From NCBI GenBank assembly GCA_036676395.1, contig JAKFCY010000002.1, forward strand, positions 2,432,001 to 2,496,000: a stretch of 64,000 nt of DNA. The letters run 5' to 3'. This DNA is from Bdellovibrio sp. (GTDB taxonomy: Bacteria > Bdellovibrionota > Bdellovibrionia > Bdellovibrionales > Bdellovibrionaceae). Position numbers and translations under genes: made by a program. The notes under the pieces were generated by a model, which saw only the letters and a list, made by a program, of their open reading frames with translations, was not told the DNA's origin and did not search any database. Below, piece after piece: positions 3,132 to 36,687 of the stretch (its first letter is position 1; the number at the start of each line of letters is the position of its first letter).

Positions 3132-3839
3132 ATGATCAGGAGAATCAACAACATGAATTTAAAAATCTCTGCACTAACAACGATTATGTTTCTATTTGGC
3201 GCAAGCTTTTCGCAGGCACAACAACTTAACGTGATTCAAGTTAAAGGTAATCGTGCCATCGTTGAAATTCAAACTGGCGAAAAATTAAAAGTTGGCGAAA
3301 GCTACGCTGTTGGTAAAGTCGATGGTGAAGTTTCGTTAGATCCTGTAGCTTCAGGCAAGGGTTCACGTAATTATTTAATCGGTTTGGATTTTGGATTTTC
3401 AAACACTAAAGTCGACACGGCAGGTGCACAATCTGTGATGGCCATTAGCACAGCTTTAAAATTCGGCTGGAATAAAAAACAGTACGAGTACGGGCCATTA
3501 GTGGTATTTGATTATTCAAAATCTGGCAGCTTAAAACCCTCATACACTTGGGGCGTGGGCGGCTTCGGCACTTACAACTTTCAACCCAATATTATCGGCA
3601 CAGATTTAATTTTTTCTGGTGATGCAGAATTTACTTTCGCGCAAACAAAACAAGGCGAAGCCGATGCATTTAACTCTATGGGCTTAACAGTCGGTCCATT
3701 CGCAAAATGGTACGGCATCAGCGATGACCACTGTATCCGCGGCGGCCTAGTATTCTCATGGGATCGCACCAGCCCCGCAACAGGCGACGTAACAACAACC
3801 GGCCTCCAAGCCGTCGTCGGCATCTCCACGTATTTTTAG
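3132..3839 (+). CDS. Secreted protein with C-terminal outer-membrane beta-barrel
   Basis: Signal peptide (true start possibly ATG 3153), alternating beta-strand pattern, terminal aromatic GISTYF. Confidence 0.65.
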   Translation: MIRRINNMNLKISALTTIMFLFGASFSQAQQLNVIQVKGNRAIVEIQTGEKLKVGESYAVGKVDGEVSLDPVASGKGSRNYLIGLDFGFSNTKVDTAGAQSVMAISTALKFGWNKKQYEYGPLVVFDYSKSGSLKPSYTWGVGGFGTYNFQPNIIGTDLIFSGDAEFTFAQTKQGEADAFNSMGLTVGPFAKWYGISDDHCIRGGLVFSWDRTSPATGDVTTTGLQAVVGISTYF

Positions 3840-3843
3840 GTAT

Positions 3844-3872
3844 TTAGGTAGGCCGTCCCTTTTTCGGGAGCG
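3844..3872 (+). repeat. Left REP-like inverted repeat of the RAYT locus (GTAG + imperfect hairpin)
   Basis: TTAGGTAGGCCGTCCCTTTTTCGGGAGCG is the exact reverse complement of 4609-4637. Confidence 0.92.
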
Positions 3873-3879
3873 ATGAGTT

Positions 3880-3916
3880 AAAAAAATCCGGCGAGCAGTT
3901 GTTTGTCGGATTTTTT
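3880..3916 (+). terminator. Hairpin with T tail, probable intrinsic terminator for the OMP gene
   Basis: AAAAAATCCGGCGAGCA-GT-TGTTTGTCGGATTTTTT; three G-U pairs on the + strand. Confidence 0.6.
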
Positions 3917-3958
3917 CGTTTTTAATTACTAACACTTAGGTTTTAAATCTTTCGAGAC

Positions 3959-3974
3959 TGGCTACAAACCTGCA
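3959..3974 (+). promoter_or_regulatory. sigma54-like -24/-12 promoter of the RAYT gene
   Basis: TGGC-N7-CTGCA with correct GG/GC spacing; predicted +1 near 3985, two nt before ATG 3987. Confidence 0.5.
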
Positions 3975-3986
3975 TCTTCGCTACAC

Positions 3987-4637
3987 ATGCCACGCAAACA
4001 CCTCATTCGAACTTGCGATTTTCCGTATCATGTTACCGCCAGATCTAATAATAAAGAGTTTTTTTATTTAGATACAAACTCTCTCTGGGATATTTTCATG
4101 GAGTCGATGGCCGAAGCAGAGAAACTATTTAACTGTCACTTTCATGCGTTTGTTCTAATGTCGAATCACTATCACTTACTTGTAAGTACACCTAACAGTA
4201 ATCTTGATATAGTCATGAATTATCTGCAACGCGAGATTGCACGCATGGCCAATAAAAAATCTTCGAGAATTAATCATTTCTTTGGAGGTCCTTACAAATG
4301 GACAACAATTTGTGAAGAGTCTTATTATTGGAATGCCTTAAAATATATTTTTAGAAATCCAATTAGAGCAGGATTATGTGAAAATGTTTTAAGCTATAAG
4401 TATTCATCATTGAACACACAACCCAAAAAATTTAATTGGCAGCTGACAGACTTTTTTAACAACCGGAATGTACAAATCAATCCCGATCTAGATTGGCTTA
4501 ACGAAGCTTATTTGAATGAAGTCGAAAACAAAATAAAAGCAGGACTCCGCAGAAGAGAGTTCCAAATACCCTGCGATGTGAATGGATATAGACCGGTTTT
4601 AGACATGCCGCTCCCGAAAAAGGGACGGCCTACCTAA
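3987..4637 (+). mobile_element. REP-associated tyrosine transposase (RAYT / Y1 HUH endonuclease)
   Basis: MPRK...YHVTARSNNK, AFVLMSNHYHLL (HUH), YIFRNPIRAGL (catalytic Tyr), YKYSS; flanked by inverted repeats. Confidence 0.9.
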
Positions 4638-4664
4638 TTTAAAAAGGGACGGCCTACCTAATTT
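4609..4664 (-). repeat. Right REP-like inverted repeat plus tandem 24-bp duplication
   Basis: 4609-4637 is the inverse of 3844-3872. AAAAAGGGACGGCCTACCTAATTT occurs at 4617-4640 and again at 4641-4664. Confidence 0.92.
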
Positions 4665-5631
4665 TCGCTGCAAGTAGATCTGGGTAGATTAGCATGCCCA
4701 CTGGTTGTAGTGGTTTGGCTGAGGTTTTGTCTAATACGATTAGCATTTGGATTCTGAATTGTTCCATTAAGAATAAGGCTTTTTCGGCTAGTTCGGCGGC
4801 GTCGATTGTTTTTGGGTTTGTCGACATCACATCTTTGGCTACAGCATTGAATGGATTTTGATTTTTTTCTAAGAAACGGCGGATATCACCGTCTGTGATG
4901 ATGCCAACTAAGTTTTGATTGGCATCAATTACGCCGGCAGCGCCGCGTACACTTTGATGAGTCATTTTAGTTAGAATGTCTTTCATTGTGGTTTCAGGCG
5001 TTACCATTGGTAGTGCAGCACCTGACTTCATGACTTCTTTTACTTTGAGAAGTTTTGCGCCTAGTGAACCTGCGGGATGAAATTCGGCGAAGTTTTCAGT
5101 TTTAAAACCGCGCATTTCTAATACTGACATCGCTAAAGCATCACCCATCGCAAGCATGGCTGTGCTTGAAGATGTCGGAGCTAAGTTCAACGGACAAGCT
5201 TCGCGTTCAACAGCGGTGCTAATCATCACTGTGGCGGCCTGAGCTAGCGAGCTTTCTGGTTTTCCGGTCATAGCGATCATTTTGATATCACGACGAGAAA
5301 TAAAATTAAGAACATGGTTTAATTCAGCGGTTTCACCACCGTATGAAAGCGCGATAACGATATCTTGATCGCTGATCACGCCTAAATCCCCGTGGCTTGA
5401 TTCTGCTGGATGTAAATAAAGAGCTGGCGTTCCAGTGCTGGAAAAAGTGCTCGCTATTTTTCTAGCGATTTGGCCGGATTTTCCGATCCCCGTCACAACG
5501 ACTTTTCCTTTGCAGGCTAAAACCATTTCAACAGCTTTTTCAAAATCAGCGTTTACTTTAGAAACTAAGTTTAAAACACTTTCGGCTTCTAATTTTAAAA
5601 CACTTTGCGCACGCTCAATAATTTTCGACAT
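4654..5631 (-). CDS. kdsD: Arabinose 5-phosphate isomerase (KpsF/GutQ; SIS + 2 CBS)
   Basis: VVTGIGKSG, HPAESSHGDLG, APTSSSTAML, FHPAGSLG, CBS motif GIITDGDIRR. Confidence 0.93.
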   Translation of the reverse strand: MSKIIERAQSVLKLEAESVLNLVSKVNADFEKAVEMVLACKGKVVVTGIGKSGQIARKIASTFSSTGTPALYLHPAESSHGDLGVISDQDIVIALSYGGETAELNHVLNFISRRDIKMIAMTGKPESSLAQAATVMISTAVEREACPLNLAPTSSSTAMLAMGDALAMSVLEMRGFKTENFAEFHPAGSLGAKLLKVKEVMKSGAALPMVTPETTMKDILTKMTHQSVRGAAGVIDANQNLVGIITDGDIRRFLEKNQNPFNAVAKDVMSTNPKTIDAAELAEKALFLMEQFRIQMLIVLDKTSAKPLQPVGMLIYPDLLAAKIR

Positions 5632-32305: not shown

Positions 32306-35300
32306 ATGAACCAGCACGTTGGTAAAAGCAATTTTATTAGAAAATTCACGGCGATAGCATTGTCTTTGCTGTTCTGTAAGCCCACGTTCGCACAGTCTGT
32401 AGAAAACCAACAAATTGTTTTTGAAGGAAGCCTAACAGACTCTGGCGGAAACTCAATAGATCTAGCTGGAGCTCAATTAACTTTTTACGTGTCGGCCAAC
32501 GGCTGTTACTTATACGGTGAAACTTCATCAGCCAGTGGCGATAGCCAAGGTAACATCGTTCACCGCATTGGCGGAGGGTCACAGGTTGCAGGTTCACCGA
32601 ACAGTTTTACCCAAAATATTTTTTTCGGAACAGTTACAGGATCAACAAGTTTTGCCAGCAACAACTGTACAGTTCTTCCTGGGGATACACGCCTTGCTCA
32701 GGTTTATTATGCCGCACAAAATATTTCAGCGACAATTAAACTTGGAACTGTTCCTTACGCTCACAATGCCACAATGTTAAATGGTAAAAATGCAGCTGAC
32801 TTTGTCGAAGTTTCTAACGACAGCAATACACTTTTATATAGCGGTACTGCTGGACAATTTTTATCAAAATCAGCCTCAGGTAGTTTAACTTGGACAAATT
32901 CAAGTATGACAGCTGCTGAAATTTCAACAACACTTGGAACATTACCGGCGGCAAACTTACCCAGTTTTTCTGGCGATATTTCAACAGCTGCAGGTTCTGC
33001 ATCGGCAATCGTGCAAGGACTTCGCGGAGTAACTCTTGCTGCAACGGCGCCTGTATCGGGACAAATTCTTTATTACAATGGTGTTGCATGGTCACCAATG
33101 ACGATTCCCGCAAATGTCGGAACAGTAACAGCTGTATCAAGTGCAAATTCAGATATCAGTGTAGTCTCTGGTTCAAGCTCGCCAATTCTAACTTTAAATT
33201 CTGGTGCCGGAGCTAACCAAATCGTTAAGCTTGATGCTTCTGCTCGTCTACCTTCAGTAGATGCCAGCCAATTAATAGCGATCAATGCGGCAAATATCAC
33301 TTCAGGTACTTTGCCAACAGGTCGCTTACCGTCTTTCAGTGGTGATGTGACTACGGTGACGGGCTCAAGCACGGTGACTGTGACTAAACTTCGCGGCTTT
33401 AATATTTCTGCGACAGCACCATCAGCAAATCAGGTTCTGGCCTTCATGGGTGGAAATTGGACTCCTGCAAATGCGCCTACAGGAAGTGTGACGACTGTCA
33501 TGGCTGGAACTGGTTTATCCGGCGGACCAATCACTTCTTCTGGAACTTTATCAGTAAATTTTGGCACATCCTCTGGAACAGTGGCTGCGGGCAATGACAC
33601 GCGCCTTGTGCAGGCTTTGCAATCAATAAATAATTTATCTGACGTTGCCAATGTTATTACAGCTCGCACGAATTTAGGTTTAGGAGGTTTTGCTACGGCA
33701 AACACTGTAGATTTAGGTTCGGCAAGTGCTACCGGAATATTAGCTAATGCAAGATTACCCGCTTTCACAGGTGATGTGGTAAGTACTGCATCTTCAAATA
33801 CACTGACGGTAACTAAACTTCGTGGAGTCACTATTTCTGCAACGCTACCGACATCATCACAGGTGCTTGCTTACAATGGTTCACAATGGGTACCAACCAA
33901 TTCCACAGTAGGAACAGTCACAAATGTTAATGCCGGTACTGGTTTACTTGGTGGAGTGATTTCTACTTCAGGAACAATATCTGTAAATTTTGGCACAGGC
34001 TCTGGCACTGTAGCTCAGGGTAACGATGCTCGCATTGTGCAAGCTCTACAATCAGCAAATAATTTATCTGATGTGACCTCAAGCGGATCAGCTCGGGCTA
34101 ATTTAGGTTTAGGAACATTAGCTACAAAAAATTCTGTGAATTTAGCAACGGCTGAAGTTACCGGAGTTTTACCTTTAGCTAATGGCGGCTCACCTTGGTT
34201 AACGCATGCAAATGGTTATTACACTGTAAGTAATACCGCGATCGGGACTTCTGCAGTTTTAACGAATATTAAATTATCAGTTGAAGGCAATACACCTTCG
34301 CAAGTCGCTAAATTTAATAATACGGCAACTAACGGCTATGGCGTAAGAATTGATGTGGCTGGTTCGAGCCCTGCACAATATGCGCTGAATGTGAATAATG
34401 CTTCTGGCTCTATATTAATGGTGCAAAACGATGGTTACATCGGTATCGGAACATTATCGCCGACTGCAGGTTTAAATTTAGTAAATGACAATGGTCCTGC
34501 AACAAAAGATGACATTCAGATCAATACATATGGCAGCAACACGCCAGCGCTCGCACTTCAAAAAGCAAAAGGAAATGCGGGAGCTCCGACTCCCCTGCTG
34601 GCGAATGAAAATATCGGAAATCTAAGATGGGATGGCTACACGGGATCTGCTTACGCCAATCTTGTCGCCGTGAGTGGCTATGCAGAAACAAATCTTGGCA
34701 CAGCAATTAATAGTTATTTAACTATTAGCACAAATTCTAACGGCACGATGGCCGAACGGGTCCGAGTGAGTTCTAACGGTAATGTAGGTATTGGCACTAG
34801 TAACCCAACTAGTAGATTGCAAGTTAGTAATGATGATTACGCGACGATTAGTTCAAATGCATATAGTTCTGCTAATTCATATGTTGCCGGAGGCTTTGCT
34901 GGATTCAGAGCCAGAGGCACAGCTTCGTTGCCTTCGTTTCCGCTCGGTGGCGATCGCTTGGCCTATTTCAATGCATCAAATGGCGTTAACCCTGTCGGAT
35001 ACAGCGGCATCGAGATCTTTAGTACAGAAACGCACTCTGATAGCAATCAAGGTTCAGAAATTCGATTAGTTACAGTTCCCAATGCCACGACGACTGGACA
35101 AGTGCGGATGACTGTCACAAATAATGGTAACATCGGAATCGGCACTCCTACTCCACAAGCTAAACTTCATGTTGCCGGCGCCATTGTCAGCAAACCGCAA
35201 ATCATAGCCACTGGCAGCGTACTTGATTTATCACTTTCGAATATGTTTATTTTAAATTCTGTCGGTGGCAGTGCAATCACACTTAATAATATTGTTGAGG

Positions 35301-35491
35301 GTGGTACCTACACAGTTATCGTGACTGACCCTGCGGCGCGCGCTTATACATTTACAGGATGTACGACTTCTTATTATGCTCCGGCGAATTCACTGACAGT
35401 AGCAGGCACCAGAACGATGTTTGGTGTTGTCACTGTGAAAAATGGCGCTAACTGGGATTGTTACATTAGCTGGACACCAGGCTATCAATAA
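32306..35491 (+). CDS. Secreted tail-fibre-like adhesin 2 (MAT-like)
   Basis: Shared N-terminal domain; NNLSDV..ARxNLGLG repeats; three GxxGIGTxxP beta-stack motifs; beta-sandwich-like tip. Confidence 0.8.
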   Translation: MNQHVGKSNFIRKFTAIALSLLFCKPTFAQSVENQQIVFEGSLTDSGGNSIDLAGAQLTFYVSANGCYLYGETSSASGDSQGNIVHRIGGGSQVAGSPNSFTQNIFFGTVTGSTSFASNNCTVLPGDTRLAQVYYAAQNISATIKLGTVPYAHNATMLNGKNAADFVEVSNDSNTLLYSGTAGQFLSKSASGSLTWTNSSMTAAEISTTLGTLPAANLPSFSGDISTAAGSASAIVQGLRGVTLAATAPVSGQILYYNGVAWSPMTIPANVGTVTAVSSANSDISVVSGSSSPILTLNSGAGANQIVKLDASARLPSVDASQLIAINAANITSGTLPTGRLPSFSGDVTTVTGSSTVTVTKLRGFNISATAPSANQVLAFMGGNWTPANAPTGSVTTVMAGTGLSGGPITSSGTLSVNFGTSSGTVAAGNDTRLVQALQSINNLSDVANVITARTNLGLGGFATANTVDLGSASATGILANARLPAFTGDVVSTASSNTLTVTKLRGVTISATLPTSSQVLAYNGSQWVPTNSTVGTVTNVNAGTGLLGGVISTSGTISVNFGTGSGTVAQGNDARIVQALQSANNLSDVTSSGSARANLGLGTLATKNSVNLATAEVTGVLPLANGGSPWLTHANGYYTVSNTAIGTSAVLTNIKLSVEGNTPSQVAKFNNTATNGYGVRIDVAGSSPAQYALNVNNASGSILMVQNDGYIGIGTLSPTAGLNLVNDNGPATKDDIQINTYGSNTPALALQKAKGNAGAPTPLLANENIGNLRWDGYTGSAYANLVAVSGYAETNLGTAINSYLTISTNSNGTMAERVRVSSNGNVGIGTSNPTSRLQVSNDDYATISSNAYSSANSYVAGGFAGFRARGTASLPSFPLGGDRLAYFNASNGVNPVGYSGIEIFSTETHSDSNQGSEIRLVTVPNATTTGQVRMTVTNNGNIGIGTPTPQAKLHVAGAIVSKPQIIATGSVLDLSLSNMFILNSVGGSAITLNNIVEGGTYTVIVTDPAARAYTFTGCTTSYYAPANSLTVAGTRTMFGVVTVKNGANWDCYISWTPGYQ

Positions 35492-35493
35492 TT

Positions 35494-36687
35494 ATGAACT
35501 GGAAAACCTCTTTTCATTTTTTAACTGCCACGCTGATCATGCTAGTGAGTCAATTTACTTTCGCCTCGCCAGCAGGCATGCATAACTCGCATCACATCGG
35601 AAAAACAAAAGTTACTAGTTATATGTCGCCCAGTGGTTTATACACCTGTAGTCTGAATGAATTCGGTTGGGCCTACTGTTGGGGTTCTAATTCAGCAGGA
35701 CAAATTGGTAACAACACGACGAGTGGAAGTGTTAGACCAATACCTATTCGCTCGGGCTTTATTCAATTAGATACTGCCCGGTCTGCCGCTGGAAGTTCGT
35801 ACGGAACAACTTATGGAATTACCCTGACCGGCGTGCTGATGAGCTGGGGCGATAACATTTACGGAAAACTCGGAACCGGCGATAGTAGCGGCGGCGCAAG
35901 CTTTACTCCGCAAGTGATCGATCCCACTACGCGCTATAAATTTGTAAAATCTCAGTACCGCCACACTTGCGCCATCACTAAAGACAATGCACTCAGATGT
36001 TGGGGATATAATTTAGATGGCAATTTAGGTGATGGAACTACGGCGCAAAAAAATTCTCCAATCACCATTGATTCAGGTGTTAGTTATAAGACTGTGGCTG
36101 TCGGTGCATTTCATACCTGTGGGATAACAACTGGTCACATTTTAAAATGTTGGGGCCTGAACGACAATAGCCAATTAGGTGATGGCACCTTCACGCAAAG
36201 ATTTTTACCAGTTACGATCGATAGCGGAACCACTTATGCCTCGGTGTCATTGGGGCTTTACCATAGTTGCGCTATTACTATGGCCGGCGTTTTAAAATGC
36301 TGGGGAACTGATGGCAACGGACAACTGGGCGACGGCGGAATATCCAGTACAAGAAGTGTTCCCTACATTATTGATGCAGGCATAACCTATAGCACAGTTT
36401 CTGTCGCTGATGACTCGAGCTGCGCAATTACAACAACTGGTGTATTAAAATGCTGGGGAGAAAACACGAACGGACAATTAGGCGACAACTCAACGACAGG
36501 CCGGATTTCTCCGGTGATCATTGATTCTGGCACGACTTACATTTCTGTTTCTGCTGGTGGCCCTCATACTTGCGGTATTACTACAGCAAAAACGATGAAG
36601 TGCTGGGGCTCAAATAATAATGGTCAACTTGGTATTGGTATTTTCTCAGGAACTTACAGCACGCCACAAATTGTAGTGCCACCTTAA
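35494..36687 (+). CDS. Secreted RCC1/BLIP-II-like beta-propeller
   Basis: Signal peptide; seven repeats approximating HTCGITTxGxLKCWGxNxxGQLGDG. Confidence 0.92.
   Translation: MNWKTSFHFLTATLIMLVSQFTFASPAGMHNSHHIGKTKVTSYMSPSGLYTCSLNEFGWAYCWGSNSAGQIGNNTTSGSVRPIPIRSGFIQLDTARSAAGSSYGTTYGITLTGVLMSWGDNIYGKLGTGDSSGGASFTPQVIDPTTRYKFVKSQYRHTCAITKDNALRCWGYNLDGNLGDGTTAQKNSPITIDSGVSYKTVAVGAFHTCGITTGHILKCWGLNDNSQLGDGTFTQRFLPVTIDSGTTYASVSLGLYHSCAITMAGVLKCWGTDGNGQLGDGGISSTRSVPYIIDAGITYSTVSVADDSSCAITTTGVLKCWGENTNGQLGDNSTTGRISPVIIDSGTTYISVSAGGPHTCGITTAKTMKCWGSNNNGQLGIGIFSGTYSTPQIVVPP

Follow-up and report, generated by a model that had tools for sequence, protein, structure and literature searches.

The closest described relatives of the element considered here are REPtrons, in which a gene for a Y1 transposase of the HUH type, the REP-associated tyrosine transposase (RAYT), lies between inverted repetitive extragenic palindromes (REPs) whose GTAG-type heads point outward. 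In Escherichia coli, this gene is rayT (yafM, product TnpA-REP) and occurs together with REPs and bacterial interspersed mosaic elements (BIMEs), and in Pseudomonas the comparable unit is the REPIN-RAYT system (REPIN, REP doublet forming a hairpin). E. coli K-12 is the one system with RAYT biochemistry, and the in vivo role of RAYTs and REPs is a long-standing question. An element of the same layout is found in a 64,000-nucleotide stretch of a Bdellovibrio sp. genome (assembly GCA_036676395.1, contig JAKFCY010000002.1, positions 2,432,001 to 2,496,000; hereafter, the window), between a gene for an outer-membrane-type protein (OMP) and kdsD, both of which converge on the element. As in the described REPtrons, the Y1 gene is bracketed by inverted REPs with outward GTAG-type heads, REP copies are dispersed, and one or two RAYT genes are present per genome. 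PMC3733652 describes a GTAG REP head that supplies the TAG stop codon of a neighboring gene, and the same arrangement is seen at this locus type. The difference from the described systems lies in the neighbors: here, their last 50–80 codons are recoded, such that the strand running into each REP head is depleted of T and G and enriched in C and A at silent sites. The element is therefore an ordinary REPtron, and the recoded flank, termed a halo in the following, is an undescribed property. In the literature searched, including the accessible parts of PMC3116915, PMC3733652, PMC5581495, and 10.1101/2021.07.10.451892, and with subscription journals and supplements outside the scope, no statement on codon usage, skew, or composition of REP- or RAYT-adjacent genes is found, and a full-text literature search returned no paper that joins Bdellovibrio with RAYT or REPIN.

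The first-pass annotation of the window, made from the sequence alone, had described this skew from hand counts, and the counts for both neighboring genes are reproduced. The last 47 sense codons of the OMP gene (3696–3836) end in C 27, in A 12, in T 5, and in G 3 times, as compared with T 21, A 15, C 8, and G 3 in a control stretch of the same gene (3231–3371), and the 50 kdsD codons at 4681–4830 end in A 26, in C 17, in G 7, and in T 0 times, with four CTA codons among them. A third stretch, inside the RAYT-like gene (4518–4574), does have C or A at the end of 18 of its 19 codons as described (A 11, C 7, G 1), but these are chiefly A-ending Lys, Glu, and Arg codons, and the stretch is not a general feature of RAYT genes (105 clusters). 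For a genome-wide comparison, 3034 genes were called in the source genome by an in-house open reading frame (ORF) and codon-score procedure (91% coding), and a z-score for C/A endings, conditioned on the encoded amino acids, was calculated for 891,115 sliding 47-codon windows. The OMP tail ranks first of all windows in the whole 3.4-Mb genome, and the kdsD tail ranks fifth among windows and second among genes (z-scores in Table 1; the next gene reaches 5.19). Four of the top nine gene ends adjoin a RAYT or a REP. Ordinary gene 3′ ends show no trend, with a mean last-window z of −0.009 (standard deviation 1.21, n = 3034) and a flat profile of C/A endings at third positions (C/A3) counted from the stop codon (0.52–0.50). 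An equally strong skew at ordinary ends, which the first-pass annotation had named as a refutation, is therefore absent. C/A outlier gene ends that are distant from detected REPs are also observed on contig C2 (1323662–1324618, 1675104–1676168, and 2658032–2658796; z 4.6–4.9). The third positions of the first of these are periodic in A, C, and T, as is likely for a repeat protein, and the last is followed by C/A-rich DNA. Metagenome contigs that carry the region of the element contain 8 variant sites over 10 kb and 0 in the halos, and the organism was not found in the two raw-read runs examined.

A direct comparison of the same gene with and without the element is provided by kdsD, a gene detected in all but one of the 41 relatives searched (40 of 41). 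Seven genomes of the genus carry a RAYT-like gene between kdsD and the OMP gene, and all seven kdsD tails are enriched (tail-minus-body C/A3 of +0.19 to +0.40). In 18 RAYT-less orthologues, the corresponding difference averages +0.008 (range −0.23 to +0.15), and none of the 18 carries the tract; the first-pass expectation that orthologues lacking the element would also lack the skew is thus borne out. The seven RAYT-bearing genomes form one clade and therefore amount to a single evolutionary contrast. The nearest genome lacking a RAYT has a T-rich kdsD tail, and its kdsD and OMP genes converge across a spacer of ~10 nt. A spacer of only ~10 nt, with no terminator in it, is noted at the RAYT-less locus L004 (genome G007). 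Relative to a RAYT-less orthologue, the kdsD tail and the remainder of the gene are equally conserved in protein sequence, and the differences are nearly all synonymous (e.g., ATT>ATC, GAT>GAC, TTT>TTC, TTG>CTA/TTA, and GGT>GGC). In the faster-evolving OMP tail, amino-acid changes toward C-rich codons are observed too. Between the source genome and a relative (G018), 46 of 48 synonymous codons of the OMP tail are alike, versus 127 of 162 in the gene body. Synonymous-codon identity to outgroups is 0.32–0.79, which leaves the silent sites too diverged for polarizing the changes, and composition and pairwise difference classes were used instead of outgroup polarization. In two genomes with saturated tails, the silent sites differ about as much as those of the gene bodies, mostly by A↔C, which points to a constraint on composition and to no fixed sequence motif.

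The halo recurs across the phylum. Within the genus, 37 of 52 genomes carry a RAYT-like gene, as do 83 of 121 in the order and 81 of 151 in a sample of the phylum. The set studied comprises 225 loci (L031–L150 and L239–L343; 30 + 30 + 25 from searches and 140 more taken in listed order), drawn from the matches listed, with a few hits near contig starts or already included left out. At each locus, one ORF per side was taken, namely the nearest with 90 or more codons, and statistics were restricted to ORFs of at least 140 codons. The skew was measured as the share of C/A endings among the 40 RAYT-proximal codons relative to that among codons of the same ORF at a distance of more than 100 codons. 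The resulting 433 flank proteins fall into 329 homology groups, whose means were tested; the p-values are indicative only, since kin are not independent and the gene calls are in-house. Flanks that face the element with their 3′ end within 200 nt are positive in 184 of 211 groups (mean +0.163, Wilcoxon p ~1e-29), in agreement with the proposed tie between skew and element. In the order alone, 132 of 144 are positive, and in the rest of the phylum, 56 of 71. A held-out set made up of the 80 last-analyzed loci gives 77 of 92 groups (p = 1e-13), and removal of the OMP and kdsD families, done for the first 60 loci only, leaves 36 of 41. Halo strength is the same with (0.175, n = 119) and without (0.170, n = 16) a detectable inverted repeat of at least 14 nt, the repeat detection being crude.

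The effect is mirror-symmetric and follows one DNA strand. Upstream of the RAYT, the excess is +0.187 (45 of 49 positive) and downstream it is +0.178 (52 of 57), as the proposed symmetry implies. The sign is reversed where a gene starts within 100 nt of the RAYT and is oriented away from it (23 negative, 9 positive, and 1 zero among 33 groups; mean −0.074, p = 0.002), and the coding strand of such genes gains G and loses C. This flip in sign indicates that the effect follows the DNA strand, not the mRNA, and upholds the strand specificity first described. Such 5′-facing flanks behave similarly in the held-out set (12 negative, 5 positive, 1 zero; p = 0.013) and within the order (14 negative, 3 positive, 1 zero), and no effect is seen at 100–200 nt (13 positive versus 7 negative). 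The clearest single 5′ case is locus L048, with a distance of 139 nt between the RAYT and the gene start (z = −4.91). The size of the 5′ effect appears to be about that predicted by the 3′ decay curve at the same distance. In this curve, C/A3 falls monotonically per 10 codons from the stop codon through 0.72, 0.69, 0.63, 0.61, 0.56, 0.54, 0.54, and 0.54 to 0.50, a decay with distance that the earlier description had called for, and third-position C drops from 0.47 to ~0.24, such that the baseline is regained within ~80 codons (~240 nt). Without reference to the reading frame, the G+T profile of the outward strand is weak (peak of 0.551 versus ~0.50), and third positions are needed to see the effect. 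The 3′ end of the RAYT gene itself, which abuts the inner, or tail, side of a REP, has no halo (last 30 codons minus middle, +0.032; third-position C not raised, at 0.15–0.20; 105 clusters, 116 ORFs), which defines the polarity relative to the REP head.

The shift is confined to silent sites. Codon position 3 changes by +0.174, as compared with +0.020 at position 1 and −0.002 at position 2, and the neighboring host genes are thus not rewritten at the protein level. From codons far from the element to those near the RAYT, third-position C rises from 0.234 to 0.403, T falls from 0.328 to 0.211, G falls from 0.178 to 0.115, and A moves from 0.261 to 0.271. At four-fold sites in the first 15 codons of the 36 strongest groups, the composition is C 0.69, A 0.18, T 0.10, and G 0.03, relative to C 0.22, A 0.19, T 0.34, and G 0.25 far from the element in the same groups. 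By our own arithmetic, these values correspond to log-odds shifts of ~2.4 for C versus T and ~2.1 for A versus G, with an extra purine-to-pyrimidine shift of ~1. In the most AT-rich class of third-position GC content, transitions alone fit: A increases from 0.27 to 0.34, and pyrimidines are at 0.58 versus 0.54. T and G are lost everywhere, and the balance between A and C tracks the genome background. No dinucleotide in the halos departs from base composition. Avoidance of RAYT cleavage sites was considered as a source of the pattern and rejected: CT on the inward strand is not depleted (ratio of 1.15; observed/expected of 1.01 versus 0.95).

Additional repeats in the source genome (3.40 Mb, 14 contigs, ~39.8% GC) carry the skew as well. 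The genome contains 17–18 copies of the repeat of the window and a second RAYT-like gene outside the window, on contig C3, which is 31% identical to the first and has a different REP family. The gene that ends at the REP head of this second RAYT has a tail z of 4.63–4.95 and ranks 6 of 3034 gene ends, and rank 9 belongs to a gene that ends at one of the solitary REPs of the second family. The opposite flank of the second RAYT shows no tail skew, either in a 91-codon ORF (z −1.38) or in the thiolase-like gene behind it (0.11). This ORF, at C3 ~34,600–35,760, has a signal-peptide-like start and is located between two second-family REPs, as if inserted or captured. Solitary REP heads of both families adjoin 26 gene 3′ ends, of which 21 have a positive last-40-codon z (mean +1.01; p = 0.0017 versus zero; genome baseline −0.014). 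The skew predicted for other copies of the repeat thus exists, though it is weak: the effect is four to five times smaller than in RAYT-adjacent tails (5.32, 4.0, and 4.27). The REP heads lie 0–13 nt from stop codons in a fixed orientation.

The assignment of the gene rests on profile matches and layout. The encoded protein scores 33.2 bits against Pfam PF01797 (Y1_Tnp; cut-off 23, E = 6.3e-8) and 63 bits against NCBIfam NF047646 (REP_Tyr_transpos), which is below the equivalog cut-off of 80, and for this reason the gene is referred to as RAYT-like. This cut-off is exceeded in just 3 of 121 genomes of the order. The translation contains H-x-H stretches (HFH and HYH) and a Y-x-x-x-NP stretch, which we take to hold the predicted catalytic residues. 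Inverted palindromic repeats bracket the gene and are also dispersed in the genome, as in a REPtron, and flanking inverted repeats of at least 14 nt are found at 90 of 116 RAYT-like ORFs of the order. The locus in the window has the GTAG-type foot GGTAGG at both sides; among the other loci, GTAG is present in the detected repeat arm of only 10 of 90, and most heads read GGTAC or GGTGC. RAYT-like genes are located mostly between the 3′ ends of their neighbors (order set, nearest ORFs within 200 nt: 155 3′-facing versus 33 5′-facing).

The features of the locus are collected in Table 1. The head of the left REP (GGTAGG, 3847–3852) points outward to the TAG stop codon of the OMP gene, which is 8 nt ahead of it, and an 8-nt duplication (TAGGTATT/TAGGTAGG) precedes this REP in the source genome. 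In relatives G018 and G016, the OMP stop TAG is formed by the first three bases of the REP head, and the 8-nt duplication is an extra of the source genome. On the other side, the kdsD stop codon (4654–4656) sits within the head of the outer right REP, and the inner right REP (4609–4637) encodes the C-terminus of the RAYT-like protein (..PLPKKGRPT). Because an intrinsic-terminator-like hairpin follows the left REP and an equivalent hairpin with a T-run is found in G018 and G016, the OMP transcript probably ends within the REPtron. No match to Pfam or NCBIfam is found for the OMP gene, and the OMP and kdsD tails have no mutual similarity outside the REP arms, by which an extended inverted repeat is rejected. 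The third positions of the RAYT-like gene are T-rich (T 76, A 64, C 41, G 36). Between the source genome and G018, the RAYT-like proteins share ~66% identity (~62% at the DNA level), and the flanking kdsD and OMP genes share 97–98%. Over the seven genomes, similarity to the RAYT of the source genome does not follow host similarity (G052 85%, G041 76%, G018 66%); judged from these alignments, the RAYT gene either would have been replaced through recombination or would be evolving very fast. In a single case, that of G016, the RAYT at the kdsD-OMP locus is split between two reading frames, and one of the weaker halos lies beside it. A further single case is seen in E. coli, where the pseudogene lfhA (L151, 12359–14071) lies at the tail side of the BIME downstream of rayT and ends in G in 25 of its last 40 codons, which makes the GTAG strand of the REP C-rich 3′ of the repeat.

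Table 1 Features of the RAYT-like locus, in coordinates of the window.
Feature	Coordinates	Strand	Basis or remark
OMP gene	3132..3839	+	ORF list; converges on the element; orthologues adjoin kdsD in relatives
Left halo (last ~50 OMP codons)	3687..3836	+	z = 6.46
Left REP	3844..3872	+	Perfect 29-nt inverted repeat with 4609–4637
Hairpin and T-run, intrinsic-terminator-like	3881..3916	+	Inverted repeat between left REP and RAYT start
RAYT-like Y1 (HUH) transposase gene, 216 aa	3987..4637	+	Pfam Y1_Tnp and NCBIfam REP_Tyr_transpos scores
Right REPs	4609..4664	−	Full copy 4609–4637 and tandem partial 24-nt copy 4641–4664; heads outward to kdsD
kdsD (arabinose-5-phosphate isomerase; SIS and CBS; KpsF/GutQ family)	4654..5631	−	Profile matches; converges on the element
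Right halo (50 kdsD codons in a row, none T-ending)	4681..4830	−	z = 6.30

The observed association with the element, absence without it, polarity, symmetry, decay, and restriction to silent sites require a cause that is anchored at the REP head, acts on one DNA strand, is symmetric for inverted REPs, fades over ~240 nt, and is stronger beside a RAYT. The favored explanation, to which a probability of roughly 45% is assigned, is that a strand-asymmetric substitution bias, anchored at the outward REP head and likely arising from cleavage by RAYT and repair, has left the halo as its long-term footprint; RAYT cleavage and repair, rather than selection, would then be the cause. TnpA-REP of E. coli cuts at CT in single-stranded DNA of the REP strand, in cis and guided by the 5′ GTAG, and its cleavage sites can be far from the hairpin (PMC3479197). 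RAYT would act on the REP strand by repeatedly cutting this one strand near the head, after which the flank would be excised, resynthesized, or repaired on one side, with errors or lesions fixed preferentially from one strand. The inward strand, which runs 5′→3′ into the head, would lose T and G at free sites and gain C and A, and the outward strand would gain G and T. In one version, a recurrent nick in the GTAG strand would make the outward strand the master copy, and in a second version, the outward strand would be repeatedly synthesized with G·T-type errors; either would be expected to yield the observed direction and gradient. If the effect builds with residence time or enzyme proximity, saturation would result beside a vertically inherited RAYT and weakness at solitary REPs, and if purifying selection keeps the proteins unchanged, only silent sites would be recoded. 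A more specific formulation is put forward with somewhat greater reserve, namely that RAYT-bound REP heads are fixed, strand-polar entry points for nick-directed excision and resynthesis. They would thereby form a directional mutator tied to these sites, by which ~80 codons of any gene located outside the repeat would slowly be recoded at silent positions, and the halo would be a record of RAYT activity in vivo. MutL and Rho are present in the source genome, and MutH was not found in it (99.3% complete), a combination that would allow both nick-directed mismatch repair and Rho termination and decides nothing. The localized mutator suggested in the first-pass annotation is partly supported: it fits the direction, polarity, and decay of the skew, and a spectrum of transitions alone does not fit outside the most AT-rich class.

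Several observations weigh against a substitution bias driven by RAYT. In E. coli K-12, no halo is seen in yafL, whose end lies at the BIME on the upstream side of rayT (0.46 versus 0.46), and of 74 forward-strand REP heads, 12 have a gene end within 45 nt, of which 3 are positive (mean −0.053, relative to a baseline of +0.009 for 34 annotated genes). The halo is consequently not universal to REPs, and its absence in E. coli may explain why it has been unnoticed. In the rest of the phylum, the sign flip of 5′-facing genes is not significant (9 negative versus 6 positive). The amino-acid composition of the tails is essentially unchanged, with no shift in the direction predicted by such a bias. 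The missing halo at the 3′ end of the RAYT gene could simply mean that this gene is younger than the halos, with its alleles replaced faster than the flanking genes, as the identities given above suggest. The weakness of the effect at solitary REPs fits age or cis action and also fits other explanations. In addition, the three GC-richer classes have four-fold pyrimidines at 0.72–0.76 versus 0.52–0.57, with the lost G going to C, and some tails in loci of 54–57% GC are nearly pure C. Since G is replaced by C rather than by A at these sites, deamination alone does not fit: the spectrum of A>G and C>T on the outward strand that was originally proposed holds for the direction and for the most AT-rich class and fails for the GC-richer ones. 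To account for the replacement of G by C, background GC pressure or codon preference would have to be assumed in addition.

This last point is explained more simply by selection, under which G and T (U) would be kept scarce, and C abundant, on the strand or transcript entering the REP head. This is the main rival, which accounts for the same data and is considered possible but less likely than the favored explanation. Such a tract could function as a Rho loading zone that halts transcription ahead of the element, as an R-loop-resistant or unstructured stretch beside the nicked site, or as a single strand unable to compete with folding of the REP hairpin. The four-fold composition of strong halos has the C-over-G character of Rho utilization (rut) sites, Rho is encoded in the source genome, and a strand of only C and A would be incapable of pairing with itself. 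Also in keeping with selection, only silent sites shift, the per-site shifts are of the size of codon bias, and RAYTs are located mostly between gene 3′ ends. However, the sign is reversed in outward-reading genes, whose sense mRNA is G-rich, and the mRNA of the RAYT 3′ end enters a REP hairpin too, yet has no halo. A Rho loading zone in particular is difficult to reconcile with the observation that T is disfavored ~three-fold relative to A, whereas Rho prefers pyrimidines. In the most AT-rich class, moreover, A rises and the pyrimidine share is unchanged, which selection for maximal C would not produce. The OMP gene already has a terminator-like hairpin just past the REP, the halos are equally strong upstream and downstream even though only upstream read-through would express the RAYT, and the effect at the RAYT side is four to five times that at solitary REPs.

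The remaining explanations fare less well against the same data. An insertion or retention preference, by which elements would land or survive at tails that were already C/A-rich, is suggested by the short distance and fixed orientation of REP heads relative to stop codons, which amount to strong site choice, and the cross-locus statistics alone cannot order events. It is nevertheless very improbable, as the kdsD tract is present in 0 of 18 orthologues without the element and 7 of 7 with it, in graded strength, the excess fades smoothly from the repeat, and comparable tails scarcely exist elsewhere: the OMP and kdsD windows are extremes of the 891,115, and four of the top nine gene ends are at a RAYT or REP. 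Similarly slim is the chance of a transcription-associated asymmetry, in which outward transcripts in both directions would expose the non-template strand to C>T and A>G changes. The skew has the matching direction downstream, where read-through from the RAYT would run, but both halos are equally strong and no outward promoter is known upstream; furthermore, the tracts exceed every gene window, highly expressed genes included, and the skew disappears in ~240 nt instead of following the transcription unit. Import of the element together with the gene ends by homologous recombination, from a donor with other codon usage, would account for the RAYT alleles that are discordant with the host (66% versus 97–98% for kdsD and OMP between the source genome and G018) and for the OMP tail being more alike than its body between the same genomes. 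It is even less plausible, given that the kdsD tail protein is as conserved relative to RAYT-less relatives as the rest of the protein, the RAYT between the tails is T-rich at third positions, the decay is gradual with no breakpoint, and the pattern recurs in 184 of 211 unrelated flank groups at loci of ~35–57% GC. Finally, chance or an ordinary translational codon preference at gene ends can practically be discounted. C-ending two-fold codons are often favored in expressed genes; the ranks of 1 and 5 among 891,115 windows, the flat profile of ordinary gene ends, and the flip in sign with orientation refute this explanation, and CTA, which is unusual in the window, occurs four times in the kdsD tract.

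A mutational halo, as in the substitution-bias reading, would constitute the first footprint left by RAYT on chromosomal DNA and, in bacteria, the first local mutation field that is strand-polar and anchored at a mobile element. A selected halo would represent a strong compositional constraint on neighboring genes, for example for insulation from incoming transcription, and equally a new function. In either case, no codon-usage outliers in these genomes are more extreme than the halos, which can pass for DNA gained by horizontal transfer and can distort analyses of codon usage or selection near the ends of genes.

Among known strand asymmetries, the one associated with replication, with its G/T-rich leading strand, has the same signs, in that the outward strand is G/T-rich on both sides and GC skew exceeds AT skew. 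The halo differs in its extent of ~240 nt per side rather than a replichore, its anchor at the repeat of a mobile element, its many sites per genome, and its magnitude, with third-position C at ~0.47 versus G at ~0.10. A switch of the replication-origin type was considered and rejected, because the skew is at baseline within ~80 codons and many loci are present per genome. Bacterial transcription-associated mutation is characterized by an excess of C>T on the non-transcribed strand and is likewise a strand-specific bias at silent sites that is attributed to single-stranded exposure. For converging genes, however, its sign is opposite to that of the halo, where the coding strand loses T and G, and the halo is far stronger and more local. 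Rut regions are C-rich, G-poor, unstructured RNA upstream of Rho-dependent termination, and REP/BIME-linked attenuation occurs in E. coli. The halo shares with them an excess of C over G across ~80 or more nt upstream of a gene-end hairpin, in a genome with Rho. In contrast to rut regions, the skew follows the DNA strand even in genes with a sense transcript of the opposite direction, is missing from the RAYT 3′ end, and is depleted of U relative to A. In vertebrate mitochondria, the asymmetry between heavy and light strands is attributed to deamination of the displaced single strand. The sense strand there is similarly C/A-rich and G-poor at four-fold sites, with a positional gradient and with both transitions on one strand. 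For the heavy strand, A>G is the change named in the abstract of PMC9561281. The halo differs from this asymmetry in that it is found on a bacterial chromosome, is a local tract, and includes a purine-to-pyrimidine change in GC-richer genomes.

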